Positions 8,904 through 47,070 of a stretch of DNA of 64,000 bases are shown piece by piece. Every line of letters starts with the position of its first letter. Within the stretch, counting starts at the first letter, position 1. Origin of the DNA: Candidatus Eiseniibacteriota bacterium (lineage in GTDB: Bacteria; Eisenbacteria; RBG-16-71-46; JASEGR01). The position numbers were made by a program, and so were the translations under genes. A model generated the notes under the pieces. It had not been told where the DNA came from. It was given only the letters and a program-made list of their open reading frames with translations, and did no database searches. The stretch is from the NCBI GenBank assembly GCA_030017955.1, contig JASEGR010000002.1, positions 10,485 to 74,484 of the forward strand. The letters run 5' to 3'.

Positions 8904-8904
8904 G

Positions 8905-9240
8905 CTACCTCAGCCCCAATTCATACAGCCTGGCTGCCACCTTGAACGTGGCTGAAGAGCTGACCAGAATCGGTATCCGTTCCTCTTCTGCCTTCTTCAG
9001 CGTTTCTTCTTCAGGGATTCTGTTGTTGACGATTATTATTCCGCAAAGGTCCGTTGCGCTGGCCACGGCAACAATATTAAGATGGGTCTGGAGGGTCACC
9101 CATATGTTTCCCTTTTTGGCGTTTGCAAGAACGTCGCTCAGCAAATCGCTTGCATACCCGCCCGTTACTTCCCTGTCCAGAAGATTCTCCCCTGCCTTAA
9201 TCTTCAAATCCAGGGCTTTGGCTATGTCCTTTAGCTTCAT
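8905..9240 (-). CDS. DRTGG-domain protein
   Basis: 111 aa with DREVTGGYASDLLSDVL and a small-regulatory-domain layout. Confidence 0.65.
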   Translation of the reverse strand: MKLKDIAKALDLKIKAGENLLDREVTGGYASDLLSDVLANAKKGNIWVTLQTHLNIVAVASATDLCGIIIVNNRIPEEETLKKAEEERIPILVSSSATFKVAARLYELGLR

Positions 9241-14838: not shown

Positions 14839-15693
14839 TTCAGTTTGCTCCAATTAGCTTTTCCTCTGCTGCCTCATCTGTGTTCTGTGTGATGCCATGC
14901 CCTTGCGAGCGCAGCCGTTCAAGACAAACTAATCCTCGTTTTTTTCACAGCATGAGACGAAGTACTAGAAACTGCCCAACCTTCGAGGAAGGAAATCCTG
15001 AACCGTTCAGAGCTCAATGTTCAGTTTTTCCGATGCAATATAAGCCAACTCATACCCAAAGTCAACCATTTATACACGACACGTTTTTCAAAGGCAAGCA
15101 CATTTTTTGATTCGGGGGACACGCCACCTAGTTCGAGAAAATATGCGCAGTCACGTACCTCCGTGTGCCCAGCCCAGGTTTGGTTCCTCGGCACGGATTC
15201 GACTGGGCTTCCGGTGCTCGTCAGCCAATTGCTCTTCGAGCTGTCCTTTCCCTCCTGCCGAAAATATCGATCCTTCTTGAACTCGCTCACTCGAATTTGC
15301 GAACTTGGGCTTCGCCCTCAGACAGCGCAAATTCGTCCCTTTCGGGTCGCTCCCTCGTCCAAGAAGGGAGTCCAGAGATTTTCAGAAAGTCGGTTCAAGG
15401 ACATCTCCAAGCCTGCCTGCTGCACGGCCGCGTCACCGACCCGGGCCGAGCCCCAATTGAATTGAGTTACGTGTCACCCTGATTAGCAGCAAAACACTGG
15501 TTAGTGAGTATGGCCCCACGTCTCACGTGTAATGCTCCATTGAAAGCTCTCGTCACGCTCGTGACTACTGATTGGAGCGTGGGGGCACTCCCTCTCGGCC
15601 AAAGGTCAAAGCCCAACGACGGCCTCTCCAGAAGAAAGCCCGCGTTTGCTTCCCTGCCACAAAACATGACCCACTGGCACAGGAAGATTGGAC

Positions 15694-15722
15694 TTGACAC
15701 TTGTTCAATATGCATATATGTT
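15694..15722 (+). promoter_or_regulatory. Candidate sigma70 promoter (TTGACA-17 nt-TATGTT)
   Basis: Read directly from the sequence. It lies upstream of ATG 15748. Confidence 0.3.
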
Positions 15723-15747
15723 CAAGCATATTGAACGGGACGCGAGA

Positions 15748-16803
15748 ATGAACACAAGTCAAGAACCTAGAGAAGAAGATGAATCCGGGCAGGAGTTTCT
15801 CTTGGATGCCCTGGATGCATTCCGCCGAGAGACGCACCTGAACGTGGAGAGATGCCAAGGTGACATCGCGGCGGATGGGAGACAAATCGATACAATGATT
15901 CGCTTGAAGGCTCAACAACGTGAGATACGATTCTGTGTCGAGATGAAGACGGGAGTGACCGACACAGTCATAGGCCGCTTGGCCCATCAATTCGAAGAGT
16001 ACTCGGGAAAATGGTTGGTGGTGACGCCTCATGTCCCGCAGCGTCTGGCAAGGAAGTTGAGAGACCTTAATATCCAGTTCATGGATACAGTCGGCAACGC
16101 CTATATCAACGAGCCGCCAATCTTCATTTTCATAAACGGCAACAAGCCTCAGCGACGGCTTCAGCTGACATCGGAAGAAGGCATGCTAGGACGGGCTGGC
16201 TTGCACGTGGTCTTTGCGCTTTTGTGCAAAAGAGAATTGGAAAATGCTCCCTATCGTGACATTGCTGAGGTAGCGGACGTAGCCCTTGGAACCGTAGCCG
16301 CTGTTGTGAAGGATCTGCTTCGCCAGGGGTATATGATTGAGAAACAAGAGGGGGGGCGGAAGCTCACAAGGAAGAAAGAACTTCTCGACAAATGGACGAT
16401 TGCATATGCTGAAAGGGTCCGCCGGAAGACCCTGATTGGACGCTATACTGCGATCCGACCTGAGTTCTGGCAAGACGTTGATCTTGTACCCTACGATGCA
16501 CAATGGGGCGGTGAAGTTGCTGCAGATAGAATGGTACATTACGTGAGGCCGGAGATCGTTACGATCTACGCACGACGTCCGCTGAACGACCTTCTGCTTG
16601 CTCTTAAGCTTCGGAAGAACCAAGAAGGCCACGTAGAATTGCGACAGCGCTTTTGGAAATTCGAGCTGAACGAACTCAGAAGAGATCTCGTACCACCGCT
16701 TCTCGTCTACGCTGACCTCTTAGCCACTGCGGACGTGCGTAATGTTGAAACAGCCAGAATGATCTACAATGAGTATCTTCAAAAACACCTCAAGGAGGAC
16801 TGA
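15748..16803 (+). CDS. AbiEi_2/DUF2186-like winged-helix regulator (type IV TA antitoxin-like); weak call
   Basis: Contains an HTH-like segment, YRDIAEVADVALGTVAAVVKDLLRQGYM. Its size and position next to fic and R-M genes also fit. The track start is TTG 15688; ATG 15748 is preferred because of the promoter-like element. Confidence 0.45.
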   Translation: MNTSQEPREEDESGQEFLLDALDAFRRETHLNVERCQGDIAADGRQIDTMIRLKAQQREIRFCVEMKTGVTDTVIGRLAHQFEEYSGKWLVVTPHVPQRLARKLRDLNIQFMDTVGNAYINEPPIFIFINGNKPQRRLQLTSEEGMLGRAGLHVVFALLCKRELENAPYRDIAEVADVALGTVAAVVKDLLRQGYMIEKQEGGRKLTRKKELLDKWTIAYAERVRRKTLIGRYTAIRPEFWQDVDLVPYDAQWGGEVAADRMVHYVRPEIVTIYARRPLNDLLLALKLRKNQEGHVELRQRFWKFELNELRRDLVPPLLVYADLLATADVRNVETARMIYNEYLQKHLKED

Positions 16804-33737: not shown

Positions 33738-34205
33738 TTGAAAACGTTTGAGCTCTCATTCTCCGTGAATGAAAAGGTCCGGAAGCTCAGTGTTCCCTAC
33801 GGAAAGACTCTTCTCGAAATTCTCAGATATGACCTTGGGCTCACCGGAACAAAAGAAGGGTGCGGGAAGGGTGACTGCGGCGCCTGCACTGTGATGATTG
33901 ATGACGAGCCTGTGAACTCATGTCTTGTTCTTGCCCCGCAAGTAGAGGGGAGGACCGTGATCACAGTCGAGGGACTTGGAGACGAAAAGGCACTGCATCC
34001 CATTCAAGAGGCTTTTCTACGGGAGGGAGCGGTTCAGTGCGGGTTCTGCACTCCGGGGATTCTCATGGCGGCAAAGGCTCTTCTGGACAAGAAGCCCAGG
34101 CCGCGTGAATTGGACGTGCGGAAGGCGATCTCCGGAAATCTCTGCAGATGCACGGGCTATGCAAAAATCGTGAAAGCGATTCTGTCAGCATCGGGCACAG
34201 ATTGA
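33738..34205 (+). CDS. Molybdenum hydroxylase [2Fe-2S] subunit, copy 2
   Basis: 155 aa with CGKGDCGACTV, CGFCTPG and NLCRCTGY. Confidence 0.9.
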   Translation: MKTFELSFSVNEKVRKLSVPYGKTLLEILRYDLGLTGTKEGCGKGDCGACTVMIDDEPVNSCLVLAPQVEGRTVITVEGLGDEKALHPIQEAFLREGAVQCGFCTPGILMAAKALLDKKPRPRELDVRKAISGNLCRCTGYAKIVKAILSASGTD

Positions 34206-34206
34206 C

Positions 34207-34779
34207 ATGCAATTCTCATCAGCGATTCTGCTTGCAGCCGGGAAGTCCGAAAGATTCGGCGGGCTCAAGCAGGGCATGGTCATTTCAGGAATGCCGCTGG
34301 TCAGAAAGTGTGCCGCAGCACTCATTGACGGTGGTGTCGATGAGCTCATCGTTGTTGTCGGCCACATGGCGGAAGAGGTGACTGCACTTCTCGGTCAAGG
34401 CCGATGGAAGATTGTGATTAACAAAGAATACGAAGAAGGTATGGGGAGCTCAATAAGAACGGGTGCGCGGTATGTCTCGGAATCATCACTTGCGATTCTT
34501 GTCGCGCTTTCTGACCTGCCCTATCTCACCGGCGAGACCGTCAGGAATATTGTTGTTGGTTTCGGGAAATGTGGAAAAGGAATCCTCGCTCCGGCTCATT
34601 TGGGAAGAAGAGGCCATCCTGTTTGCTTCAGCCGGAAATATCTCGGCGAGCTGAGGCGCCTGGGTGGTGACTCCGGTGCAAGGGAGCTTCTGGACGAGCA
34701 CCCGGAAGACCTTTTCCTTCTCGAAGTCGGTACGGATTCGATCTATTCCGACATTGACACGGAGGCTCCGGACAAATGA
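34207..34779 (+). CDS. MobA-like nucleotidyltransferase (MocA/YgfJ-type molybdenum cofactor cytidylyltransferase)
   Basis: 190 aa with AILLAAGKSERFG. Confidence 0.8.
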   Translation: MQFSSAILLAAGKSERFGGLKQGMVISGMPLVRKCAAALIDGGVDELIVVVGHMAEEVTALLGQGRWKIVINKEYEEGMGSSIRTGARYVSESSLAILVALSDLPYLTGETVRNIVVGFGKCGKGILAPAHLGRRGHPVCFSRKYLGELRRLGGDSGARELLDEHPEDLFLLEVGTDSIYSDIDTEAPDK

Positions 34780-35585
34780 TGGATGCTATCTTTCGGAACG
34801 TTCTGGCTCTTCAGGAAAATGGTGAGGACTGTGCTGTGGCCACGTTGATTTCCGTGAAAGGCTCTACTCCAAGAGGGACTGGTGCAAGAATGATTGTGAA
34901 GCAGTCCGGGGAGGTCATAGGGTCAATCGGGGGAGGGCGGCTCGAAAACCTTGTAATCCGGGAGGCAAAAAGAGCAATTGAGGAAAGGTCTCCACGAAAG
35001 GTCGTCTTCAAGCTCACCGAGAAAGAGTCGCATGGAATAGGCTCGATCTGCGGCGGGACGGCCGAAGTTTACATCGAGCCTGTGATCAGTGAGCCGACAC
35101 TCCTCGTAGTCGGCGCCGGCCACATCGGGCTTGCTCTTTCAAGATTGGCAAAAATTGCCGGCTTAAGAGTGGTTGTCACCGATGACAGACGGGCTTTTGC
35201 ATCGAGAAAGAGATTTCCTGACGCAGATGAAGTCATCGTTGTGAAGCCGGAGAAACTTCTCGAGAAAATCAAGATCGGCAGGAACACATTCATCGCCCTT
35301 GTTCCGAGGGGGCACGAGCTTGACCTTGCGTACCTGGTAAGGCTTCTTCGGGAGGATGCGGCATATATCGGCATGATCGGAAGCAGAAGAAAGACAGCCA
35401 TTATCAAGAAGAAGCTGAAGGAAAAAGGTTTCAGCAAGAAAAGAATCGACAGAATCTTCACGCCCATTGGACTCGCCATAGGCGCGGAGACTCCTGAGGA
35501 GATCGCCGTCAGCATACTTGCGGAAATCGTTGCGGTGAGGCGCGGACTGGACAGTCCGCTTGGTTCGCTGAGCAGGAGAGCTTGA
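34776..35585 (+). CDS. xdhC: XdhC/CoxI-family molybdenum hydroxylase accessory protein
   Basis: 269 aa with an XdhC N-terminal region and the Rossmann motif LLVVGAGHIGLAL. Confidence 0.85.
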   Translation: MMDAIFRNVLALQENGEDCAVATLISVKGSTPRGTGARMIVKQSGEVIGSIGGGRLENLVIREAKRAIEERSPRKVVFKLTEKESHGIGSICGGTAEVYIEPVISEPTLLVVGAGHIGLALSRLAKIAGLRVVVTDDRRAFASRKRFPDADEVIVVKPEKLLEKIKIGRNTFIALVPRGHELDLAYLVRLLREDAAYIGMIGSRRKTAIIKKKLKEKGFSKKRIDRIFTPIGLAIGAETPEEIAVSILAEIVAVRRGLDSPLGSLSRRA

Positions 35586-35588
35586 GAA

Positions 35589-36476
35589 ATGAAGTTCCCT
35601 GTGGTTGTCATCAAGGGGGCAGGAGACCTTGCCTCCGGAGTCGCGCACCGGCTTTTCATGGCCGGATTTCCGGTCTGCATGACTGAGCTTGAAAACCCTC
35701 TGGCAGTGCGGAGGCTTGTATCATTTGCCGAGGCCGTCCACAGAGGAACGATGGAAATTGAGGGCGTCAGAGCATTCTCTGCTGCGACCTTGAGTGAGGC
35801 AAAGCGAATCCTGAAGGAGAGGAGCTGCATACCCGTTCTTGTCGATCCGCGGGGTGTCACTGCCGGCAAGCTCAAGCCGCGCATTGTGATCGACGGACGG
35901 ATGGCGAAGACAAATCTTGGAACGACGATCGATGAGGCACAACTGGTGATCGGACTTGGTCCCGGATTCGCTGCCGGGACGGACGTTGACTTTGTGATTG
36001 AGACCAAAAGAGGCCATAACCTGGGCAAGGTCATTCATGAAGGAGAAGCTCAGGCGGACGACGGAATTCCGGAGCCAATCCTGGGTCACGGTGAAGAAAG
36101 GGTCCTGAGGGCGCCGTGTGACGGAGTGCTCACGAGCTTCGCAGATATTGGACGAAAGGTAAGAAAGGGAGAGGAGATATGCGCCGTCGACGGAAGATAC
36201 ATCTCCGCAACGATTAACGGAGTATTGAGAGGAATGCTGACATCGGGAAGCCAGGTTAAGAAGGGAATGAAACTCGGCGACATCGACCCGCGCGGCGAGA
36301 AATCTCTATGCTTCACCATTTCGGACAAGGCAAGGGCAATCGGAGGCGGAGTTCTGGAGGCGATTCTGATTCATCTCGGAAGAACGAGGGCCAGCTTCGG
36401 GGTCCGGAGAAAGAGTCATACCGTGGAAGAAGAGCCGGATTCGAACAAGTTGGCATCAGCCGGAGAAGAGAGATGA
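35589..36476 (+). CDS. YqeB/EF2563-family selenium-dependent molybdenum hydroxylase system protein
   Basis: The N-terminus VVVIKGAGDLASGVAHRLFMAGFPVCMTELENPLAVRRLVSFAEAV matches my memory of the EF2563/YqeB family (TIGR03309). The genomic context also fits. Confidence 0.65.
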   Translation: MKFPVVVIKGAGDLASGVAHRLFMAGFPVCMTELENPLAVRRLVSFAEAVHRGTMEIEGVRAFSAATLSEAKRILKERSCIPVLVDPRGVTAGKLKPRIVIDGRMAKTNLGTTIDEAQLVIGLGPGFAAGTDVDFVIETKRGHNLGKVIHEGEAQADDGIPEPILGHGEERVLRAPCDGVLTSFADIGRKVRKGEEICAVDGRYISATINGVLRGMLTSGSQVKKGMKLGDIDPRGEKSLCFTISDKARAIGGGVLEAILIHLGRTRASFGVRRKSHTVEEEPDSNKLASAGEER

Positions 36477-37327
36477 TTGAAATCCTTGAGTATCATGCAC
36501 CCGCGGGCATTCAAGAGGCGCTCAAGATTCTTTCGAAAACGCGGGGGATAACGATCATTGCAGGCGGCACCGATGAGATTGGACGTTTGAAAGAGGAGAG
36601 AAAACCGCTCTCCGTTCTTGATATTTCCGGAATAAAGTCGTTGAGAGGAGTGAAGATAACGAAGACCCAGATAATCCTCGGTGCTCTCACGACTCACAAA
36701 ACTATCGAAGAGAGCCGGCAGCTGGCGAAGCTCTGCCCATCACTGGTAGAAGCAGCGTCTATGATTGGCTCTCCTCAGATAAGGTCAAGGGGGACGGTGG
36801 GAGGGAACATAGCGAACGCATCACCCGCAGGCGATCTCATACCCCCACTGATTACTTTCGACGCGAAGGTCGTCCTTGCATCAAGAAGCGGAAGGAGGGA
36901 AGTGCCACTGGAAAAGCTCCTCAAGGGTCCCGGCAAGACGGCAATCTCTTCGAAGGAGATACTTTCTTCGGTCGTTATTGATAGGCGTGGACTTCCCCCG
37001 CTTCAGAGTTTCAGGAAAGCGGGACAGAGAAACTCCCTGGCGATATCACTCGTAAACGTCGCGGTCGGAGCGCACGTTGAGGGGGGGAAGATAGTGAAGG
37101 TAAGGATAGCGCTTGGCTCCGTTGCGCCGACTGCAATAAGGGCTGTGGCGGCAGAAAAGGTTCTGCTGGGCCGGATTCCGACCAGAGAGCTTGTCGCCAA
37201 AACCTCGAAAGTTGCCGCCGGGGAATCGAAGCCGATAGATGATGTTCGGGGCCACGCCTGGTACAGAAAAGAGCTTATACAGGTTCTGGTGGAAGACGCA
37301 TTTGAGCGGATACTGGACTTGTCCTAG
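36473..37327 (+). CDS. Molybdenum hydroxylase FAD-binding subunit, copy 2
   Basis: ATG 36473 (ATGA overlap with the upstream stop) gives MIEILEYHAPAGIQEAL. IAGGTDE and GTVGGNIANA are present. The track start at 36308 is an upstream out-of-context extension. Confidence 0.85.
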   Translation: MIEILEYHAPAGIQEALKILSKTRGITIIAGGTDEIGRLKEERKPLSVLDISGIKSLRGVKITKTQIILGALTTHKTIEESRQLAKLCPSLVEAASMIGSPQIRSRGTVGGNIANASPAGDLIPPLITFDAKVVLASRSGRREVPLEKLLKGPGKTAISSKEILSSVVIDRRGLPPLQSFRKAGQRNSLAISLVNVAVGAHVEGGKIVKVRIALGSVAPTAIRAVAAEKVLLGRIPTRELVAKTSKVAAGESKPIDDVRGHAWYRKELIQVLVEDAFERILDLS

Positions 37328-38145
37328 ACGGTCAAAACCTCAAAACTCCTGGTTCCACTGAAGTTCATCGCATACTGCCTTTCTGCAATGTATCCGAGAT
37401 CAGAAAGGAGCCGGAGAGTATCTTCGATTTCCTCAACAGTCCAGTTGACCTCCTGAGCCAGGGTTGACAGCGCTAGAACTCTCATTTTCTTTCTTGCGAT
37501 GAGCCTTGCGAGGCCGATCGAGCGTGAGTACAAGCTGTAGTTTGCGCCTGGCTCCGGAAGCTCAGGCACGATAAGTAGGGCAAGAGATGAAGCGAAATTC
37601 CCAAGTCTCTCATTCGGACATTCAACGAATAAGTCGAACCTGTGCTCAGGCTCCTTGTGACCGCATGTGATACCGCTGCACCTCCTCACGCCGCTCAAAG
37701 ATGAGATCGTGTCTATGAGAACATGCTCGAACACATGGGCCACATCAGCGGCGGCTCCTCTGTCAGGGGCACCGCATTGGGATTGGCCCTCGAGGGAAAG
37801 GAGCGTCTCAATAAGGGTTGAACTGCCGCAGCACTTGTGATTGGGGAGAGCAGGGAAGAGAACAGCCAATCTTCCGATGACCTGGGGAAGGCGCTTTCTG
37901 AATTCCAAAGAAAGCTCTTGTCCGATTTCAATGGTCAGCTTGAGCCTCCACAGCTCCTCACTGAAACCAGGATTAAGCGGAGTAGCTTCTTCGTGTGGTC
38001 CGTAGTCTCTTGCGATGAGTCTCATGCTGGTGCCGTTAGTGTCGTGTCCCGGAAATTCCTTGTATATGTCTTTGCCCAGGGACACGACACTTTCATAGGG
38101 GTTTGTTACCCCTCTGACGCTTCTGGATGCTCCTCTTTGTCGCAT
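37324..38145 (-). CDS. Hypothetical protein with a C-terminal winged-helix-like segment; the N-terminal part faintly resembles the cyanophycin-synthetase N-domain
   Basis: The only similarity I can point to is LPNHKCCGS...VAHVFEHVLID against the CphA N-domain motif (EHxCSxG...H[IV]VEHVALE). The C-terminus reads LSTLAQEVNWTVEEIEDTLRLLSDLGYI. The start is uncertain (ATG 38145 or ATG 38025). Confidence 0.4.
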   Translation of the reverse strand: MRQRGASRSVRGVTNPYESVVSLGKDIYKEFPGHDTNGTSMRLIARDYGPHEEATPLNPGFSEELWRLKLTIEIGQELSLEFRKRLPQVIGRLAVLFPALPNHKCCGSSTLIETLLSLEGQSQCGAPDRGAAADVAHVFEHVLIDTISSLSGVRRCSGITCGHKEPEHRFDLFVECPNERLGNFASSLALLIVPELPEPGANYSLYSRSIGLARLIARKKMRVLALSTLAQEVNWTVEEIEDTLRLLSDLGYIAERQYAMNFSGTRSFEVLTV

Positions 38146-38162
38146 CCCTACGCTGTCACCCT

Positions 38163-38186
38163 GAGGGGGTCGGCCACGACCCCCTC
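38163..38186 (-). other. Perfect 10-bp stem / 4-nt loop hairpin (GAGGGGGTCG-GCCA-CGACCCCCTC)
   Basis: Read directly from the sequence. It lies between the palindrome at 38275 and the start of the 273-aa gene. Confidence 0.5.
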
Positions 38187-38273
38187 ATACCCCCTGGCAG
38201 TGTGCCTTATGAAACGCCCCGCATTTCGTAAAGTCATCTCTGGGAGGGCACACTGGCTCTGCGCTGGCTGCAA

Positions 38274-38307
38274 AGAAGAAGGGGAAGAATATTCTTCCCC
38301 TTCTTCT
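38274..38307 (-). terminator. Perfect 32-34 nt palindrome (GAAGAAGGGGAAGAAT|ATTCTTCCCCTTCTTC), probable intra-cluster terminator or attenuator
   Basis: It starts 13 nt after the stop of the small gene at 38320. The stem is up to 17 bp and is followed on the minus strand by TTGCAG, a weak U-tract. Confidence 0.6.
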
Positions 38308-38319
38308 CGAGTGACCGGC

Positions 38320-38532
38320 CTACCAACTCCAGTCGTCGAACTTGGACTCGTCCTTGTCAAGAGTGCCATGAAGAACAACTCTGTATTCGCCGGTCTCCGG
38401 ATTGACCAACTCCACTTTTGCCCTTGCGTTGGTCGAACAGACCAGCATCTCGGAGAGCTTGTTTCTGAGCGATGCAGGGGCGGTCGGCGACTTCTCAAGA
38501 TAATCAAAATCCTGAATCTTGAATCTTGGCAT
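38320..38532 (-). CDS. Small conserved hypothetical protein, paralog 1 (70 aa)
   Basis: MPRFKIQDFDYLEKSPTAPASLRNKLSEMLV...TGEYRVVLHGTLDKDESKFDDWSW. About 60% identical to the adjacent ORF over its full length. Confidence 0.6.
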   Translation of the reverse strand: MPRFKIQDFDYLEKSPTAPASLRNKLSEMLVCSTNARAKVELVNPETGEYRVVLHGTLDKDESKFDDWSW

Positions 38533-38554
38533 GATAAAAATCCTCCTTCAGAGT

Positions 38555-38761
38555 TTAGGGCGTATCCCACCTGCTCTCGTCTTTGTCGAGTGTTCCCTGG
38601 AGAACAATCCTGTACTCCCCGGTCGTCCTGTTGACGGCCTCCACCTTGCAGTTGGCATTGTGAGAATTAAGTAGCATCTGGCTCACTTTGTTTCTCAGAT
38701 TTCCCGGAGAAGTCGGCCATCTTTCGAGGCACTCGAAATCCTGGAGATTGAACTTCGGCAT
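38555..38761 (-). CDS. Small conserved hypothetical protein, paralog 2 (68 aa)
   Basis: MPKFNLQDFECLERWPTSPGNLRNKVSQMLL...TGEYRIVLQGTLDKDESRWDTP, preceded by the strong RBS GGGAGGAGGTGA. Confidence 0.6.
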   Translation of the reverse strand: MPKFNLQDFECLERWPTSPGNLRNKVSQMLLNSHNANCKVEAVNRTTGEYRIVLQGTLDKDESRWDTP

Positions 38762-38812
38762 TGCTCATCACCTCCTCCCTATTAGGGTCTGGAATTCTCT
38801 TCCTCGTGAAGC

Positions 38813-39187
38813 TCAGTCCTTTTCAGACTCGTACGGCTTTTCGCATGCGATGACGAACCTGTACGGAGCCGTTATTGCAGGCAGATCCCTGGTGCAGAAC
38901 ATGCACTTTTCTCTTTCTGGTTCCACCCTGTTTTGTTGCCTGGACATCTGTTTCACCCACTCCTTTACAAGCTCAAGTCTCAGAACTTGGTCGATCTCCC
39001 CGGTCTCATTCCATGAACTCATGGCTTTCTTCATGAGGAGCGGATTTGTCGTCAGAACCTCTCTGAAACCGAGAAGCGCTTGTTCCTTTGAAAGCGGTTT
39101 TTCGCGGATAATAGGGGTTTCGTTTATGACTGGAAGAAGACCTGAATCTTCTAGAAGACGTTCGAGCAGCAGCCGTTGATCTGACAA
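38813..39187 (-). CDS. Hypothetical protein (124 aa)
   Basis: TTG start preceded by GGAGGGTG. No motif recognised. It is the first gene after a 315-nt gap. Confidence 0.45.
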   Translation of the reverse strand: MSDQRLLLERLLEDSGLLPVINETPIIREKPLSKEQALLGFREVLTTNPLLMKKAMSSWNETGEIDQVLRLELVKEWVKQMSRQQNRVEPEREKCMFCTRDLPAITAPYRFVIACEKPYESEKD

Positions 39188-39502
39188 GACACCCTCCGAT
39201 TTATTCCCGCGCTTCGCCTGTTCTCTGGAAGGGCAGGATGGGAAGCATGCTGTTTATCTAATCGTCAGGCTGGGCTTTACACTTGAGGGAAATCTTCTAC
39301 TGGCAGGAAAACGAATGGGGTCATGAGCGACTGGGATGGCTGACAGTGATGAACCCTGAGCTGGCTTCTGTGGGAGGGATGGGGACACATCTTGGCGAGC
39401 AAGGTGGGGATACCCAGCCCTTCAGACGCTGGGAGGGGCAAGGATTCCCCGCCTAGCGGGCCATAGATGGGTCATCCCGGAGCGGAGCCGGCGAAGGGCT
39501 CA

Positions 39503-40300
39503 TCACTGTGGTAGTTCCTGGGGGAGCGTCTCAATGACCGACAGGATGCGCGAGAACAGGTCTTCGAGAACCTTCGAGATTGAGCCGGTCCCGGAAGGTC
39601 TTCTGAGGAGCTGGAGGTCGAAAGGGAGAAATCCGAGCCCGACCGGAGTGAAATTGAGAAAACGGTCTGAGACTCCAGCAAGTATTTGAGAAGCACTTCG
39701 CCCCTCGTTAGGCGTGGTACACCTGTTAACCACAACACCGACTCTGGAAGTCGTTTTGCCCAGGACAATGTTTTTGAGAAGGGCATAATTGGAAGTCAGC
39801 GATAGAGGGTCAGGTGTTGCTACGATCACCGCAAACGTTGAGATTTCACGAAGCTCCGCGCCAGGACCTCCCAGACCCGATGGAATGTCAAGAATAATGC
39901 AGTCGAATTCTCTTGATATGGGTTCAAGGTCGCCGCGGACTGAGAGATGCTCCTCGTGTGAGAGCCCCGAGAGACTGCCGAGTCCGGGACACCCGGCAAG
40001 AACGCTGACTCCGGTCTTGGTTTCCTTCACGCACGACCTGAGTGTCCTTTTCCCTTCGAGATACTGAGCAAAGTGATCATCCGGCTCGATGCCAAAGAAA
40101 AAGTGGCTTGAACCAAGACTCCAGTTAGCGTCAACGAGTAGAGTTTTCTTTCCGAGCCTGGAAAGCCACAAGGAGAACTGAGTCGCCAGGTAGGATACTC
40201 CGGTCCCCCCGTTGCCCGAGGAAAAACTGATGAGTACGCCCTGGAGCGATCCGAAATCTTGCGCAAGACCGGGCCTTCCTTCAGACGCCTCATCGTTCAT
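39503..40300 (-). CDS. MinD/ParA/FlhG-like P-loop protein with a degenerate Walker A motif
   Basis: 265 aa with LISFSSGNGGTGVSYLA where MinD has SGKGGVGKT. LLVDANWSLGS (Switch-I-like), CIILDIPSG (Walker B-like) and VVVNR are also present. Confidence 0.7.
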   Translation of the reverse strand: MNDEASEGRPGLAQDFGSLQGVLISFSSGNGGTGVSYLATQFSLWLSRLGKKTLLVDANWSLGSSHFFFGIEPDDHFAQYLEGKRTLRSCVKETKTGVSVLAGCPGLGSLSGLSHEEHLSVRGDLEPISREFDCIILDIPSGLGGPGAELREISTFAVIVATPDPLSLTSNYALLKNIVLGKTTSRVGVVVNRCTTPNEGRSASQILAGVSDRFLNFTPVGLGFLPFDLQLLRRPSGTGSISKVLEDLFSRILSVIETLPQELPQ

Positions 40301-41180
40301 TGTCTTTTTGTCCGGATTCCCCCGGAGAAGAACCTCCGAGGGACATTATCTCGGCAATGGTCAGGAGCCCCGCCTTTGGCTTCTCGTCCGGCACTGCGAA
40401 CTTTTCCCTGAGCTTCCTCAAGGCTTCCTCAATGTCCTCGGCCTCTTGAATCTGCATGGGACCGGCGCCCCCTCCGTCAAGTGAGAACTCGAGAAAACCT
40501 CGTCCTGCCTGGATGGTTGCTACCGGCTTCTGGAATGCCTCCACAAAGATTCTTCCACGCTCGCACTTCAGAGAGACTCCGGGAAAGAGCTTCTGGATTC
40601 TCCCCGCCGCCCGCATCGCAAGATTTCGCAATTTGTCCGGCTCTATTTGGGAGAAAAATGCGGGCAGAGATTCCGCATCCACCCGCTTGATGCGGGACAG
40701 GTTCACTGCGTTGAAGACGGGGTACTTCTCATCCTTGCCGAGAAGGACTACTCTGAGTTCGAAAAGCTCAATTGCATAGCTGGAGAAGGAGGCCATCCGT
40801 TCAAGAAAGATATCTGGAAAAGAGGGAGCAGCAACTACTATCCTGCAAGCTTCAGCGTTGACCGCTTCACTCCCTGGAAAAAGAATCGAGAAAAACCAGG
40901 GGTTTTTCTTCTCCCACAGGTAAATATCCAGCAGTTCCAAGAAGAGCCCGTCTGAAGGTTCGAGTGATATGCAGAGGGACACAGGCTTCCGATTGCAGTC
41001 GATCCCGACAAGATAGCTTCTTTCTTTCTGAGAAGCTTTTATCAAGCCGGGCGGAAGCTTCTTCTCACCACCCTTGAGGATTACCGAATATCCATTCTCG
41101 AAAGAGTGCGGCCACCGGATGATGAGCTCAGCGAGTTCGTCGAGGTCGTGAATATCAGTGAAAGAGATTCTGGCGTGCAT
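40290..41180 (-). CDS. Hypothetical protein (296 aa)
   Basis: First gene of the minus-strand cluster; its end overlaps the ParA-like gene by 11 nt. No confident motif; the segment LVGID...LLDIYLWEKK is only vaguely nuclease-like. Confidence 0.45.
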   Translation of the reverse strand: MHARISFTDIHDLDELAELIIRWPHSFENGYSVILKGGEKKLPPGLIKASQKERSYLVGIDCNRKPVSLCISLEPSDGLFLELLDIYLWEKKNPWFFSILFPGSEAVNAEACRIVVAAPSFPDIFLERMASFSSYAIELFELRVVLLGKDEKYPVFNAVNLSRIKRVDAESLPAFFSQIEPDKLRNLAMRAAGRIQKLFPGVSLKCERGRIFVEAFQKPVATIQAGRGFLEFSLDGGGAGPMQIQEAEDIEEALRKLREKFAVPDEKPKAGLLTIAEIMSLGGSSPGESGQKDNER

Positions 41181-41234
41181 TTCTGCCTCTGGATGTCTGG
41201 AATTCCAGGACTGGGTGCCTATCGATGCAATCTC

Positions 41235-41263
41235 AGGCTATCATTGGACAAGAGACCTGTCAA
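41235..41263 (-). promoter_or_regulatory. Candidate sigma70 promoter for the minus-strand cluster (TTGACA-17 nt-TAGCCT)
   Basis: Read directly from the reverse complement. Confidence 0.3.
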
Positions 41264-41306
41264 GGCAGTCGCGGCAGCGGAGATGCTTCTCCCAAGAGGC
41301 GCGTTC

Positions 41307-41336
41307 TTGACAGTTCACCGCCAGAGCCACTATTGT
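41307..41336 (+). promoter_or_regulatory. Candidate sigma70 promoter (TTGACA-18 nt-TATTGT), divergent from the one above
   Basis: Read directly from the sequence, upstream of 41411. Confidence 0.3.
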
Positions 41337-41410
41337 CAAACATAATGTAGGGTTCTGTTGTCTGTGCTGGACGATGATGTTTCAGGGAATTGCACTGCTC
41401 TGGAGGTGCC

Positions 41411-41919: not shown

Positions 41920-44900
41920 ATGTCCGATATCGATATTGGAAAAATCCTAGCCGGAAGGTACAAGGTCCTTGCTCGTCTCGGCACCGGGGGCATGGGCTCG
42001 GTTTACAAAATCGAGGATTTGAAACAGGGCGGTATCAAGGCTCTAAAGCTGCTCTCCAGAGAACTGAACACTCGAAAAGATAGAGAGCGGTTTGTGAGGG
42101 AGTTCCTGCGGCTCTCGAAACTTGAGCATCCAAACATCGTTCGTGTTCACGAACAGGATTGGGCAGATGATGTCAGTCCCTTCTACACGATGGAATTCAT
42201 CGAAGGGAAGAATCTTCTGGATGCATGGGCATTGATGGAATCAGAACGAGCTTGCTCGGTAGTAGCGGATATTCTTCAGGGCCTCATGTTCATCCATTCA
42301 AGAGGGATAGTCCACCTGGACGTGAAGCCATCAAACATCTTTGTAATAGATGCTGGTCCCCGCCCCACTGCGAAGCTCGCGGACTTCGGTCTCGCGAGGT
42401 TGTTTCGTGAAAAGGGATCGGGCAAAGTCTCCGGCACACCGGGATTCGTTGCTCCTGAGCTGCTCGAAGGGAAGGGAGCTGACGGAAGGTGCGATCTCTA
42501 TTCTTTCGGCGTGACGATTTGCCATGCAGCGAGCGGCGGCAAGATTGAGTTCGATGAGAACAGGGAAGTCGTCTTTCGCGCCGGCCTTTTTTCCAGAATG
42601 CCCCAAGGGTTTGAGAAAGTGATATCGAGATTGCTGGAGCGGGACCCACGAAAAAGGTACCAGTTCGCCGATGAGGTGCTGAGGGACTTTTCCCAATTTC
42701 TGGGAAGAACATATGTTGCTACCGGGAAGGGGACAGTATTCCTGCCGGCTTTCACAGGAAGACAGAAATTGATTCGGGAGTTCGACTCTCTCCTTCTGGA
42801 TCAAACTCAGAACAACAGGGCCGTCCTCCTCGTGCGTGGAGAATCCGGGACCGGCAAGACGCGGCTCCTTGAAGAATTTGCTGCAACTGCGTCCATGAAG
42901 GGATTCTTCCCGATAATGATTGACTATCCGGGAAAGAATCGTGGACTGGAGATCTTCCACCAATTTTGCGAGAAGTCGTTTGAGAGGACCGGCGATGAGT
43001 TTTTCCTCGAAGCCCGTTCAAGGTTCTCAGCGTGGGCCGGGAGCTCAGAAAGAGAATTCTTCCTTCAAGTCGACGAATTTCTCTGCAAAGCAGCAGAGAT
43101 ACTTTTCCGGAAACCCGGCACGAAGCCCCACCTTGTTGTTCTTGTTGACTCAGCTCATCTAATCGATGAGTTGAGTTTCGCATATATCAGCATGTTCTCG
43201 AATAATTCATCGCTTGCTGGCGGCCTCTTTGTCCTCACCTGCCTTGATCCGCCTCCTGTTCATTCCTTCCTCGAAGAGGATGAACTTTCGAAAGCCTCCG
43301 GGTTCCAGAGGCGTGAACTTGATCCTCTTTCCAGGGACGAGATCGAGCTTGTAGTCGCATCGATGCTCGGGACCGCTACTCCTCCGTCCGGCCTGGCTCA
43401 AAGGGTCTTTGAAATATCTCAGGGTAATCCTCTCTATGCCGTCCAGTTTGTGAAGATGGCTGTCGAGGGGAAAATTCTCTCACGAGCGGGCGGAGCCTGG
43501 AAATATGATGAAGAGGGGAAAGAGCTGCCTCTACCGGGGTCTCTGGAGGCTGCGTTTGAGAATATTCTTTCAGGCCTTGGCACTGAGACTCTTTCAGTTC
43601 TCAAAGCTGCGAGCGTTTTTGAGATCTCAATACTGGGCGATTTCCTTGAAGAGCTTGTCTCTCTCAAGCCGGAAGGTTTTCTTGACTCTTTGGGTGAGCT
43701 TCTAGGTAAGGGACTTCTTTCAGAACAGGGAGATGGCCTCTTCTTTTTTTCAAACTCATCTTTGCAGCAATACGTGGAGAGGAGGTTAGAGCCAGGGAGG
43801 AAGAAGGAGCTACATGAGCATCTTGCCGGCATCCTTGAAGAGAAATCGGACGCGGATGAGACAGTCTGGGAGATTGCCGATCACTACCTGAAAAGCAATC
43901 GCCTCGATAAGGCAAAGGAGTACGCAAGAAAAGCTGCCGGCCTTGCACTGAGAAGAAGATGCCCGAGAAAAGGCGCTCATTTCCTGAAGACCCTCCTTGA
44001 GCTGCATCCTGAAGTCTCTGAAGAAGAGAAGAATGAACTCATGATTCAGCTTGCAGATCTTCTCGAGGAAGCCGGGATGCTTGACCAGGCACTCGGTGCT
44101 TTGAAATCTCTGGAAGCAAAAGAAGGCGATGCCTCTCCGTTCGCGCTGAAAGCAATCTTCAGAGAGGGTGTCATTCTTAGAAAGAAGGGAGAGCTCAGGC
44201 AGGCGAGGGAAAAACTCGATGCGTGTCATATCCGGGCTGTCGAACAGGGGCAGGAATCTGTATGCGGGGAGATCCTGCTTGAGCTTGGCTGGCTCGAACA
44301 TCTCGAGGGAAGAGGCGGTGAGGCAGTCAGCACCTTTGAGACAGCCCGGGAAATCTTTGACGGTCTTCAGGATTCCAAGAATGTCGCTCTCGCGCTTATG
44401 AGAAAAGGAATAGTGGAAATCTACTCCGGAATGTTTGATGGGGCAGAGGCCTCATTCTCCGAGGCCCTCTCTATCGGCAGGAAAGAGGATGATATCCTGA
44501 CCATCCAGAAGTGTCTTTTGAACATCGGTTTCGTCCTGGACAATAAGGGTGAGCTGGAAAAGGGCCTCGCAACCTACAAGGATGCGCTCTCGCTGTCGGA
44601 GGGGCGAGAGGATAGTTTTTCTGCGGCGCTCATACTCAACAATGTCGCCTCTGTCGAGGAGAAACTCGGGAGATTCGAGGAAGCGGAGAAGTGTTATCTG
44701 CAGGTAATCGACTTGAGAAACAGGATTGGCAACAAGAGCGGCGAGGCGTGGTCCAGAGTCTCGCTTAGTTGGGTCCTCATGCTCAGGGGTGAGTGGCTGA
44801 AGGCTGAGGAATATATCACCCAGGGGCTTGAGATGTCATGCCGGTTGGGAGACAGGTCCACTCTCTCCGCGGCCAAAGAGAATCTGGCTCTTCTTTCCCT

Positions 44901-47070
44901 TAGGAAAGGCGACATCGGTCAGGCCGAGAAGCTACTTCTTGAAAGCAGGGAACTCAAAGACGCGTTGGGACTGAAAGCCAGGTCTCTTGTTACCAGCGCG
45001 AATCTGGCCTTTCTTGCCATCGAGAAAGAGGAAGCTGCAAAGGCAGAAGCTCTTCTGAGGTCTGTTCTTGATGAAAAGAAGGAATTCGTTGAACCGTCGT
45101 TTCGGGTAAGATTGCTTTCCTGCTTGGCGTACACCTTATGTCTCAGGAATGAGTCCAAAGATGCGGCGGGTTACGTGAGCAAGAGTCTTGATTTGCTTCC
45201 ACGGTATGAGAACAAAGTCGATGTTTCAAGCTCAAAGAGGATTCTGGGTCAGAGCCTATGCATCTTGGGGGATGGGGAGAAGGGACTTTCACTTATTGAG
45301 CAGGCAATTGCTGAATTCCGGGAGATGGGAGCCCCCTATGAAGAGGCGGAGTCTCTGCTTGCGAAGGGGGGAATCCTCGCGGATGATGCAGGGAAACAAG
45401 GTGAGCGGGCGGAGCCGCTCAAATCGTTAAAGGGTGCGATCAAGATCTTCAGAAGATTGGGGGCAAAGAGGAAGCTTGAAGAAACGCTCGGCCTTTATGC
45501 GGCAGTTCTGGAATCTGCTCTCAGCAGAACCGGGAAAGAAGCGAGAAGGGAAGCCGACACCCTGGCTCTGCGCGAAATGCTGGAGCTTGCCAACTCAATT
45601 GAGAAGACAGAGAAACTTCTGGGCAAGGTCATGGAGCTCGCATTGAGGAAGACGGGTGGCGAGAGGGGATTGATCGCACTCTTCTCAAAGAGGACCGGGA
45701 GATTGGAAGTGGTTGTGAACTCGGGTGTCGAGATGGGACTCGTCAGGGACGCGCTCAGGATCTCCAGGTCAGTGCTTGAAGATGTCGCCGAGAAAGGAAT
45801 ACCCCTGATATCAAGAAACGCAGCAGAGGACGAGAGACTCAGAGAAAGAAAGAGCGTTGTCGATTACCAGATTCATTCGCTCATGTGCATTCCCCTTGTC
45901 ATAAAGAGTGAGAAGGTTGGAGCAATATATATTGACAAGAGAGAGGACCTGAGTCCCTTTGCGGAGGACGATCTCTCTTTCCTGCAGGCGTTCGGCCACC
46001 TGGCCGGAGTAATTATTGAGACCTCAAGGCTGAGATCTGACCTCGAAGAGGCGAGAGATTCTCTTTCCAGGGAAAACGAGTCGTTGAGAATAGAAGTTGT
46101 CTCGCGGTACCGGTACGAGAACCTCGTCGGCCAGAGTGAGGCAATAAGAAAGGTGTTTTCTTTCATTGAGAAAGTCGCCGGTTCGACGGCTCCGGTCCTG
46201 ATCACGGGAGAGAGTGGGACTGGTAAGGAGCTTATTGCAAAAACAATTCATTTCACCGGCCCGAGAGCAGGCAAACCGTTCAGGGGCGTAAACTGCGCAG
46301 CCATCCCTAGAGAACTGATCGAGAGCGAGCTCCTTGGAATCGAAGAGAAGGTTGCGACCGGCGTGAGCATGAGAAAAGGACTTTTTGAAGAAACCGAGGG
46401 CGGAACGGTGCTTCTGGACGAGATAGGAGATATGGACCCTTCAGTCCAGGCAAAAGTCCTTCGCGTTCTCCAGGATGGAGAAGTTAGAAGGGTCGGCGGA
46501 AGGAAAGACATAAAGGTCGATGTCAGGACAATCGTGGCCACAAATAAGGACCTCAGGAATGAAATCAAGGAGGGAAGATTCAGGGAAGATCTATATTTCA
46601 GAATTTCGACACTTCCCATCGAAGTGCCGCCCCTGAGAGAGAGAACGGAGGATATCCCGCTGCTCGCTGATTTCTTCGTAAAGAACTACTATAAGAGTCT
46701 CGGAATGAGACCAAAACCGCTTCCTCAGGAATTCATTCAGGCTCTGGTGAAAGGAAGGTGGTCCGGGAATGTCCGGCAGCTCTTCAACTGCCTTGAAAGG
46801 ACTCTTGTCATGTCAGAGGGCTCGGAGATCTCTTTTGACTACTTGCCTGACGAAGTCCGGGAGGGATCTGGCCCGGCTCTGGCGGCCTTCGCTCCAGGCG
46901 AGGAGACCCTCATGGAGGTAATCTCAAAAGTCGAGCTTGAAATGCTGAAGAGAGCCCTTGAAGAATCATCCTGGAACAGAACCAAAGCCGCCAAAATCCT
47001 CGGAATTCCTGAACCGACAATACGATACAAAATGAAGAAGTACGGTCTCACGCCTCCTCGCAAAAATTAG
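41920..47070 (+). CDS. 1716-aa fusion: Ser/Thr protein kinase, STAND/AAA ATPase, TPR array, GAF, sigma54-interaction AAA+ domain and Fis-type HTH
   Basis: Kinase motifs are GTGGMGSVYK, IKALK, HLDVKPSNI and LADFGLAR. The P-loop reads RGESGTGKTRLLEEF. Long TPR-like repeats and a GAF region follow. The EBP core carries LITGESGTGKELIAK, VLLDEIGDM and FREDLYFRI. The C-terminal HTH reads WNRTKAAKILGIPEPTIRYKMKK. Confidence 0.9.
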   Translation: MSDIDIGKILAGRYKVLARLGTGGMGSVYKIEDLKQGGIKALKLLSRELNTRKDRERFVREFLRLSKLEHPNIVRVHEQDWADDVSPFYTMEFIEGKNLLDAWALMESERACSVVADILQGLMFIHSRGIVHLDVKPSNIFVIDAGPRPTAKLADFGLARLFREKGSGKVSGTPGFVAPELLEGKGADGRCDLYSFGVTICHAASGGKIEFDENREVVFRAGLFSRMPQGFEKVISRLLERDPRKRYQFADEVLRDFSQFLGRTYVATGKGTVFLPAFTGRQKLIREFDSLLLDQTQNNRAVLLVRGESGTGKTRLLEEFAATASMKGFFPIMIDYPGKNRGLEIFHQFCEKSFERTGDEFFLEARSRFSAWAGSSEREFFLQVDEFLCKAAEILFRKPGTKPHLVVLVDSAHLIDELSFAYISMFSNNSSLAGGLFVLTCLDPPPVHSFLEEDELSKASGFQRRELDPLSRDEIELVVASMLGTATPPSGLAQRVFEISQGNPLYAVQFVKMAVEGKILSRAGGAWKYDEEGKELPLPGSLEAAFENILSGLGTETLSVLKAASVFEISILGDFLEELVSLKPEGFLDSLGELLGKGLLSEQGDGLFFFSNSSLQQYVERRLEPGRKKELHEHLAGILEEKSDADETVWEIADHYLKSNRLDKAKEYARKAAGLALRRRCPRKGAHFLKTLLELHPEVSEEEKNELMIQLADLLEEAGMLDQALGALKSLEAKEGDASPFALKAIFREGVILRKKGELRQAREKLDACHIRAVEQGQESVCGEILLELGWLEHLEGRGGEAVSTFETAREIFDGLQDSKNVALALMRKGIVEIYSGMFDGAEASFSEALSIGRKEDDILTIQKCLLNIGFVLDNKGELEKGLATYKDALSLSEGREDSFSAALILNNVASVEEKLGRFEEAEKCYLQVIDLRNRIGNKSGEAWSRVSLSWVLMLRGEWLKAEEYITQGLEMSCRLGDRSTLSAAKENLALLSLRKGDIGQAEKLLLESRELKDALGLKARSLVTSANLAFLAIEKEEAAKAEALLRSVLDEKKEFVEPSFRVRLLSCLAYTLCLRNESKDAAGYVSKSLDLLPRYENKVDVSSSKRILGQSLCILGDGEKGLSLIEQAIAEFREMGAPYEEAESLLAKGGILADDAGKQGERAEPLKSLKGAIKIFRRLGAKRKLEETLGLYAAVLESALSRTGKEARREADTLALREMLELANSIEKTEKLLGKVMELALRKTGGERGLIALFSKRTGRLEVVVNSGVEMGLVRDALRISRSVLEDVAEKGIPLISRNAAEDERLRERKSVVDYQIHSLMCIPLVIKSEKVGAIYIDKREDLSPFAEDDLSFLQAFGHLAGVIIETSRLRSDLEEARDSLSRENESLRIEVVSRYRYENLVGQSEAIRKVFSFIEKVAGSTAPVLITGESGTGKELIAKTIHFTGPRAGKPFRGVNCAAIPRELIESELLGIEEKVATGVSMRKGLFEETEGGTVLLDEIGDMDPSVQAKVLRVLQDGEVRRVGGRKDIKVDVRTIVATNKDLRNEIKEGRFREDLYFRISTLPIEVPPLRERTEDIPLLADFFVKNYYKSLGMRPKPLPQEFIQALVKGRWSGNVRQLFNCLERTLVMSEGSEISFDYLPDEVREGSGPALAAFAPGEETLMEVISKVELEMLKRALEESSWNRTKAAKILGIPEPTIRYKMKKYGLTPPRKN

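Follow-up and report, generated by a model that had tools for sequence, protein, structure and literature searches.

What kind of system is specified by six small minus-strand genes in which nothing familiar is apparent at first sight? The question is raised by a 64,000-nt stretch of contig JASEGR010000002.1 from a Candidatus Eiseniibacteriota bacterium (hereafter the window), where six open reading frames (ORFs), named here g1 to g6, succeed each other from position 41180 down to position 37324. The original prediction, made from the sequence alone, assigned a function to none of them and speculated about a cargo-positioning or small structural system. Here, we report that the cluster is one local, reduced copy of a conserved, undescribed gene module. 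Its core associates a small protein of family E (g3), two tandem paralogues of a family named S (g4 and g5, or S1 and S2) and a larger protein of family F (g6). The absence of any functional assignment turned out to be too pessimistic for three of the six products, since F is homologous to the peptidase-bearing N domain of the cyanophycin synthetase CphA1, g1 belongs to a NucS-like family and g2 is probably a pseudo-ATPase.

Results

A conserved core of four genes

All six ORFs were confirmed on the minus strand, with the coordinates and in the order initially proposed. The core comprises g3 (family E; 38813-39187; 124 aa), which starts with a TTG codon behind a GGAGGG Shine-Dalgarno sequence, g4 (S1; 38555-38761; 68 aa), its tandem paralogue g5 (S2; 38320-38532; 70 aa) and g6 (F; 37324-38025; 233 aa). 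We scanned one genome per species, called ORFs in 83 loci (at most 20 kb each) in addition to the window (84 sources) and built family profiles; the 37 loci in which 5 kb or more were available on each side are referred to as complete. Relatives of S were found in 97 species genomes, all of them metagenome-assembled, from Zixibacteria, Eisenbacteria, Acidobacteriota/Polarisedimenticolia, Latescibacterota, KSB1 and bins labelled Ignavibacteria. S is present in one to four copies, forming a tandem pair in 70 of the 84 sources, and F adjoins it in 75 of them (33 of the 37 complete loci). The S pair precedes F in Acidobacteriota, Eisenbacteria and the window (S-S-F) and follows it in Zixibacteria (F-S-S). 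No enzyme other than F was found among the conserved neighbours of S.

Part of the window arrangement recurs on each of two short contigs (1.3-1.8 kb) belonging to close relatives, L091 and L092. The former displays the family of g2 (B'), the intergenic gap, E, S1 and S2 in the same order, and the latter S2 and F beside the same convergent neighbour. The ratios of nonsynonymous to synonymous changes (pN/pS) calculated against these contigs amount to 0.08 for S1, 0.04 for S2, 0.22 for g3 and 0.20 for g6, showing that g3, g4, g5 and g6 are real genes under purifying selection.

A chance juxtaposition of unrelated or partly spurious genes could be suspected from the fact that the window proteins, taken singly, have no match or sub-threshold matches, and that 315 nt separate g1-g2 from g3-g6. 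However, no gene could be attributed to an unrelated housekeeping family, and about 80 loci keep the neighbourhood of the small proteins. Together with the gene orders of the close relatives and the pN/pS values, this makes a fortuitous grouping extremely improbable. The six-gene cluster is conserved, and E-S1-S2-F (g3-g4-g5-g6) constitutes its conserved core module.

Two other classes of system were considered and rejected. A cluster for ribosomally synthesized and post-translationally modified peptides was discarded on the grounds that no conserved enzyme but F occurs near S and that S is conserved over its whole length, not in a leader only. Similarly, an anti-phage defence function or a phage or plasmid origin was dismissed: no significant PADLOC or PHROG match was obtained except for the ParA-like PHROG of g2, and S1 and F are both absent from the plasmid collection.

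F is homologous to the N domain of CphA1

The F protein consists of a metallopeptidase-type, CphA1-N-like domain (residues 1-160) followed by a winged helix (164-230). Its homologues range from 203 to 306 aa and contain no further enzymatic domain. Searched alone, g6 matches PF18921 weakly (E = 3e-3; 17.9 bits, below the Pfam gathering threshold of 27), and this family is precomputed in 19 of the 26 listed F homologues. A profile built from 32 F members retrieved CphA1 from the PDB (7wac, E = 6e-7; 7lg5, E = 2.6e-4), with P-s-L-x-r-H-k-C aligned to P-S-L-V-E-H-L-C and a-H-L-x-E-H to G-H-V-I-E-H. The H-x-C and H-x-x-E-H motifs of F align in this way to H57, C59, H79, E82 and H83, which form a cryptic Cys-His-His zinc endopeptidase in Synechocystis CphA1 (PMC9262961). 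The equivalent residues of the 233-aa protein (H63, C65, H97, E100 and H101) are invariant in our alignments, as are S117, G118, T120 and D131. Indeed, every one of 75 F homologues has H-x-C…H-x-x-E-H, and 71 of the 75 keep the S-G-x-T-[CG] strand that follows.

Structural comparison leads to the same assignment. The AlphaFold model of F is confident (predicted local distance difference test [pLDDT], 89.8; predicted template modelling score, 0.88), and its five best Foldseek matches are all CphA1 (probability 1.0, TM-score 0.5-0.54 over the query). F is thus homologous to the CphA1 N domain by sequence and by fold, with an intact catalytic motif. Since the motif has been lost in about 17% of CphA1 enzymes, its invariance in F argues for selection on the F site itself. 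From these preserved residues, we infer that F would be active as a peptidase. No literature was found on stand-alone PF18921 proteins.

Two small-protein families share a strand motif

In agreement with the two tandem paralogues initially noticed, g4 and g5 share 62% identity, and both are preceded by strong Shine-Dalgarno sequences. Family S corresponds to 40 clusters among 5.8 billion proteins, all of 64-69 aa and either unnamed or annotated as 'hypothetical protein' only. A filter-free profile search of 1.84 billion representatives returned 146 matches, nearly all of them stand-alone proteins of 63-75 aa. Domain fusions were considered as a clue to S function and abandoned, the longer matches being upstream extensions, S-S tandem fusions (natural examples are P0074 and P0103) and chimeric or frameshifted calls. 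S1 has no Pfam, NCBIfam, PADLOC or PHROG match.

Across phyla, S proteins retain ~55-60% identity over their whole length. Among 156 aligned sequences, S33, T-G-E-Y-R and G56 are invariant, and D8, E13, P16, S18, P19, L22, N44, V53, L54, T57 and D59 nearly so; the strand motif reads E-Y-R-I-V-L-Q-G. In Zixibacteria and in Eisenbacteria, the S1 and S2 sequences fall into distinct clades, and they are less diverged in Acidobacteriota and the window. The protein is not basic and shows no sign of DNA binding. Its monomer model is poor (pLDDT 65), with a short helix, a second helix and a beta-hairpin, and has no significant Foldseek match; folds suggested by Foldseek or PDB profile matches were set aside as insignificant or artefactual (e.g. 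a designed Kelch repeat).

Two other proteins deserve mention. P0166, from the search of representatives, is a 219-aa protein with a signal-peptide-like hydrophobic N-terminus and four repeats, each containing H-G-D-Y-R-I-V-F-K-G-T, which is the same strand motif as in S within a quite different context. Besides, a conserved 67-aa protein (MK[VI]GNW…DGTREVFIIK…) adjoins a Poly_export gene a few kb from S in L001 (4494-4697), L005 (5925-6128) and six more loci; its hairpin region is loosely S-like.

Family E, to which g3 belongs, is easily missed because its conservation is confined to the C-terminus. A variable N-terminal part and a C-x-x-C motif are followed by a C-terminal Y-R-[IVF]-V-[ILF]-x-C and an acidic tail. 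The C-terminal motif is the invariant strand of S with an invariant cysteine replacing the glycine, and 23 loci representing four or more lineages have small ORFs that carry it. In every case E neighbours the S genes. It separates a helix-hairpin-helix (HhH) gene (family D, see below) from S1 in Eisenbacteria, L033, L038 and L007; Zixibacteria have it between F and S1, and Acidobacteria at the end of an accessory A-B-C-D block. Between g3 and its L091 orthologue, identity reaches 73%.

A hairpin follows the S genes

The strong palindrome reported downstream of S2 is real. It is a perfect 34-nt palindrome on the minus strand (38274-38307; 17+17 nt), whose RNA fold has an energy of -33 kcal/mol (z = -6.5). 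L092 carries the same arm sequences, and in L091 the two arms have both changed but still complement each other where read by eye. At z < -3, 34 of the 84 sources have a strong hairpin after the last S gene; the median z is -2.4. In the window, the U tract is weak (CUUCUUCUUUGC), the consensus scan did not report the site, and the only Rfam match at the palindrome is sub-threshold, to the terminator end of CsrC. We therefore describe the element as a putative terminator-like or attenuator hairpin, which is conserved. Since the S genes have strong ribosome-binding sites and the last of them is followed by this conserved hairpin, these signals suggest that S is made in excess over F.

F as a candidate peptidase of its small partners

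What, then, could F act on? Our tentative answer, to which we give somewhat less than even weight, is that F is a zinc peptidase dedicated to the small proteins encoded with it, which would be recognized through the shared Y-R-I-V-L stretch, S being the substrate and E a Cys-bearing competitor or regulator. F would operate as a zinc metallopeptidase with a Cys-His-His metal site and a glutamate as general base, and S1, S2 and E would be its dedicated protein partners. The strand common to S and E may pair, in beta conformation, with the conserved S-G-x-T-C edge strand in the substrate groove of F. Cleavage or trimming of S would follow near its invariant G-T-L-D and its variable tail, and E may act, via its cysteine, as a competitor or a zinc-capping regulator. 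The hairpin after S2 would keep S expression well above F expression. The role of S and E as substrates or regulators of F and their mode of docking are what we infer from the linkage of S and F across phyla, the position of F as sole conserved enzyme near S, its invariant catalytic motif, the strand motif common to S and E, the apparent excess of S over F and the selective constraint on the four core genes, all of which would fit this proposal.

Several points weigh against it. First, S and F are not inseparable: S occurs without F in L001, L059, L065 and L087, the order in one acidobacterial lineage (L001-L004) being S-S-A-B-C-D-E with no F, and at least one F homologue (L090) has no S within 10 kb of sequence. 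Second, the spacing between the cysteine and the first histidine of the active-site helix is 20-36 residues in F versus 19 in CphA1. Third, strand docking is deduced from sequence motifs only, because the S model is poor and has no fold match. Finally, the conservation of S over its whole length is unusual for a mere protease substrate and fits better with a self-assembling or machine-binding protein.

The loci in which S and F are found apart would also suit a different explanation, in which F acts elsewhere, on cyanophycin-like or other isopeptide/poly-amino-acid material or on general peptides, and S and E work independently, for instance in machine or metal binding. The only characterised relative of F cleaves cyanophycin, and the invariant polar residues of S (D8, E13, S18, S33, N44, T47, E49, R51 and D59) suit ligand or metal binding. 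Yet S and F are tightly adjacent in two gene orders and in several phyla, and neither a cyanophycin synthetase nor a cyanophycinase is among the conserved neighbour clusters examined in the loci. We consider this explanation unlikely, and retain that of a peptidase dedicated to S and E.

The start of g6 and its winged helix

The last gene of the cluster had been presented as encoding a 273-aa protein with a C-terminus resembling a winged helix-turn-helix. The winged helix stands in the confident model; the length does not. The ORF extends to 38145 (273 aa), and the true product is almost certainly the 233-aa protein starting at M41 (38025). Homologues with 80-84% identity start at the residue equivalent to M41, and the additional 40 codons fall in a structured insertion of 216 nt (38040-38255, minus strand) located between the S2 hairpin and the true start. 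In L091 and L092, which lack this insertion, the F start codon is found ~35 nt after the hairpin. The insertion, which folds into four or five stable hairpins (minimum free energy -95.5 kcal/mol, z = -6.6), is found at a single place in the window and belongs to no Rfam family. It is lineage-specific and probably foreign to the module, and could be a small mobile or structured RNA element.

The C-terminal domain of F displays the helix-strand-helix-helix-strand-strand order, and its Foldseek matches are the winged helices of HsmR (MarR type), SarA and the CodY C-terminal domain (local probability up to 1.0). Nevertheless, we doubt that it reads DNA, because its third helix, unconserved in sequence, bears a net charge of -4 in the window and is close to neutral on average in the family (mean -0.16). 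The initial view of g6 as a DNA-binding-like protein must therefore be revised, the protein being mainly a metallopeptidase-type domain with a third helix that is acidic here and neither conserved nor basic across the family. A domain of this kind, unlikely to read DNA, would be consistent with a part played in protein recognition.

These features also bear on a regulatory alternative. F could bind DNA by its winged helix and function as a protease switch, similarly to ImmA/ImmR or IrrE/DdrO, with S1, S2 and E as signal-dependent modulators or targets controlling the locus or a regulon. The fusion of a peptidase to a winged helix would be a plausible one-protein version of such systems, the domain resembles those of MarR, SarA and CodY, and a 13-nt inverted repeat is present just upstream of the F start (38038-38091). 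However, the repeat lies within the insertion missing from close relatives, no conserved operator was found, and the properties of the third helix are unfavourable. Moreover, S is far more conserved than F, unlike what would be expected from the accessory peptide of a regulator. A DNA-binding switch is improbable in our view, and a peptidase acting on its small partners remains the interpretation that we prefer.

g1 and g2 are the remnant of an accessory module

Upstream of the core, g1 (family A; 40290-41180, minus strand; 296 aa) overlaps g2 (family B'; 39503-40300, minus strand; 265 aa) by 11 nt. On its own, g1 has no Pfam match, and a metagenome scan with it returned no match. Family A was recognized in 16 sources, always directly upstream of a MinD-like gene. 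It combines an N-terminal PD-(D/E)xK domain like the C-terminal domain of NucS, a variable middle part and a short conserved C-terminal L-T-x-E-E. Three members match Pfam NucS_C, and the 16-member profile retrieved NucS (2vld, E = 3.7e-5) and EndoMS (5gke, E = 2.3e-4). In these alignments, the first catalytic aspartate is aligned and the E-x-K positions are occupied by non-catalytic residues, from which g1 is predicted to be a nuclease-dead NucS-like protein.

The description of g2 as a degenerate MinD/ParA-like protein was well founded. Homology to TIGR01969 minD_arch (E = 2e-17), to Pfam AAA_31/CbiA and to phrog_164 (ParA-like; E = 9e-12) is in each case below the curated cut-offs, and identity with the B proteins of L001 and L005 is 26-27%. 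Its Walker A reads SGNGGTGVS versus K-G-G-T-G-K-[ST] in 18 of 18 homologues, both Walker A lysines being lost, and DADLGL is replaced by DANWSL. In addition, g2 is devoid of an N-terminal LGRG[LM]xxL peptide found in 15 of the 18 homologues. As the deviant Walker A is destroyed, g2 is probably a pseudo-ATPase; unable to bind ATP normally, it would serve at most as a scaffold.

The context of these two genes becomes apparent in Acidobacteriota, where A and B precede a canonical ParA (C) and then D, the whole block standing before or after S-S-F. The 15 B proteins with the motif (L005 12043-13098, L037 12192-13142 and those of 13 other Acidobacteriota loci) begin with L-G-R-G-[LM]-x-x-L, continue with a disordered linker, and are followed immediately by the canonical ParA gene. 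This N-terminal peptide may resemble the ParA-activating N-terminal peptide of ParB; a literature search for the LGRGL motif yielded nothing relevant. In the D proteins (22 loci; e.g. L033 5909-6169, L038 9521-9745, L037 13956-14468), a disordered linker, whose length varies widely, connects a RadA-N-like (HhH)2 domain to a conserved S-F-W-[RS]-F-G at the C-terminus. Their genes either immediately precede the S genes or follow the ParA gene; in Eisenbacteria, L033 and L038, D stands directly before E-S-S-F and no ATPase gene accompanies it. Family profiles detected neither a C (ParA) nor a D gene in the window. The g1-g2 pair is the remnant of an accessory MinD/ParA/HhH module that is complete only in Acidobacteriota.

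A gene for a ~990-aa DEAD/Helicase_C/WHD_HRQ1/MZB (DUF1998) helicase was also observed on the same strand as S1 in L001 (6691-9663), L005 (6529-9516) and L089 (4540-7470), ending about 70-210 nt before S1, and in about eight more Acidobacteriota loci. It could reflect lineage synteny or be a further component.

Is positioning the function of the module?

The original idea of a positioning system is partly sustained by the acidobacterial loci, in which S-S-F stands beside a NucS-like, MinD-like, canonical ParA and HhH set that looks like a ParA-type positioning apparatus. Positioning is not the core function, however, because any ParA/MinD gene is found in just 13 of the 37 complete loci, versus 33 for F. 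Neither does it apply to the window, where the MinD-like protein is without both Walker A lysines and the ParA and HhH genes are missing.

In its most elaborate form, this idea would make S1/S2 an abundant homo- or hetero-oligomeric body or filament, positioned on the nucleoid by the ATPases together with HhH and NucS-like DNA binders, F being a maturation or turnover factor or an anchor. It accounts well for the extreme conservation of S along its length, its recurrent tandem paralogues (2-4 copies), its apparently high expression and its natural S-S fusions. In the same vein, S-S-F is found beside A-B-C-D in both relative orders, B bears its LGRG[LM]xxL peptide and sits beside canonical ParA, and the (HhH)2 domain, disordered linker and aromatic C-terminal motif of D are reminiscent of ParA adaptors, by analogy. 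Against these arguments, most complete loci have no ParA/MinD gene, the ATPase of the window is dead and its companions ParA and D are gone, polymerisation of S is unsupported and its model poor, and the invariant peptidase motif of F would be left unexplained. We regard a structural or cargo system as rather unlikely, although it is the main rival of our proposal.

The two lines of thought could be reconciled in a more speculative scheme, which we consider doubtful at this stage and in which S1, S2, E and F would make up a cytoplasmic system of a new kind. A minimal inverzincin-like zinc peptidase would mature S hairpin proteins or gate their assembly into an abundant complex, and a two-ATPase relay of Acidobacteriota (ParA and a MinD-like protein with a ParB-type peptide, an HhH adaptor and a nuclease-dead NucS-like DNA binder) would place this complex on the nucleoid, the positioning half being in decay in the window. 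We continue to favour the proposal of a peptidase with dedicated small partners.

Intergenic regions and neighbouring operons

The 315-nt gap between g2 and g3 (39188-39502) is G-rich, as originally stated, with 34% G on the plus strand (top 2% of same-size windows). Compared with L091, only the ~120 nt next to g3 are conserved, for which reason this segment is likely to contain the promoter and 5' untranslated region of g3-g4-g5. The gap matches no Rfam family, and the consensus scan reported no minus-strand promoter in it. That it might be a decayed D gene was rejected, as no profile signal was obtained in any frame and no FW-x-FG motif exists anywhere in the window.

The cluster is flanked by a convergent CoxM-like gene on one side and a divergent adenosine-kinase-like gene (PF04008, E = 2e-73) on the other. 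The divergent intergenic region common to g1 and the latter gene (41181-41389) was thought to contain two TTGACA-type promoter candidates. One of them was recovered as a sigma-70-like site on the plus strand (TTGACA-18-TATTGT, 41307-41336); the minus-strand TTGACA exists, but the scan reported no promoter there. Beyond the adenosine-kinase-like gene lies a gene for a 1716-aa activator (41920-47070, plus strand) with Ser/Thr kinase, STAND-type AAA, TPR, GAF, sigma-54 activator and HTH domains. The suggested link between the cluster and this operon does not hold, since the pairing is not conserved in other loci. Sigma-54 activators or kinases do occur nearby in 14 sources (13 other loci and the window), and their heterogeneity leaves a link to the giant activator unsupported. 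Control by the latter was also rejected on the basis that, in all lineages, the region upstream of S is without a well-scoring GG-N10-GC promoter. L050 and L057, both labelled Ignavibacteria and arranged F-S-S as is typical in Zixibacteria, each encode a ~975-aa TPR-GAF-sigma-54 protein (6789-9713 and 13793-16723, respectively) some 3.5 kb away from S.

On the other side, a carbon monoxide/xanthine-dehydrogenase-type operon (33738-37327, plus strand; CoxS-like, MobA-like, XdhC-like and FAD subunit) converges on g6 and ends at its stop codon. The FAD-subunit neighbour of g6 is kept in the close relative L092 (864-1289).

Discussion

The present evidence defines a well-delimited conserved module without assigning its cellular role. 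Should F prove to be the peptidase of S and E, a peptidase site found in 2022 in cyanophycin synthetase would turn out to be that of a free-standing peptidase family with its own protein partners. In addition, a near-invariant family of small proteins would gain its first functional handle, in phyla from which few members, if any, have been cultured. In Acidobacteriota, the module would exemplify an unusual ParA/MinD architecture, in which a MinD-like ATPase with a ParB-like activating peptide stands beside ParA. As the module consists of four small genes, it is accessible with recombinant proteins.

The closest known counterpart of F is the N domain of CphA1, which has the same fold and in which the H-x-C…H-x-x-E-H motif is aligned residue for residue. 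In CphA1, the peptidase substrate is held by backbone atoms of C59, A96, G97 and T101 (PMC9262961). In our reading of the alignment, the S-G-x-T-C strand that comes after the active-site helix of F corresponds by position to A96-G97…T101. The differences are as clear as the similarities. F is free-standing, without the ATP-grasp (G) and Mur-ligase-like (M) domains, bears a C-terminal winged helix in their place, and is encoded beside small proteins and not within a polymer synthetase. The CphA1 N domain is itself distantly related to the M16 inverzincins (PMC9262961), and F has in common with pitrilysin and insulin-degrading enzyme the H-x-x-E-H on the active-site helix. Nevertheless, F has about 160 residues in this domain versus up to 1000 in M16 enzymes, its third ligand is an upstream cysteine and not a downstream glutamate, it forms no clamshell, and no F search returned an M16 match.

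Other parallels concern the accessory genes. With ParABS, MinCDE and McdAB-type systems, the cluster shares a MinD homologue (g2), to which Acidobacteriota relatives add canonical ParA and adaptor-like proteins with disordered linkers. In contrast to these systems, the window has no Walker A lysines, ParA or adaptor, no centromere-like repeats were seen, and most carriers of the S-F core are without such an ATPase. Regarding NucS/EndoMS, the match of the family A profile to 2vld and 5gke spans about 58 residues, the first catalytic aspartate among them, whereas E-x-K is replaced, the N-terminal DNA-binding domain of NucS is absent and the C-terminal part is different.

Finally, small proteins matched to one protease have functional analogues in the small acid-soluble proteins of spores with their GPR protease, and in ImmA/IrrE with their repressors. 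Our module differs from both in having no sequence or fold relationship with them and no sporulation or prophage context. Its ties to known biology are limited to the domain-level homologies of F, g1 and g2. Neither the S and E families nor a free-standing peptidase of the CphA1-N type is part of any described system.

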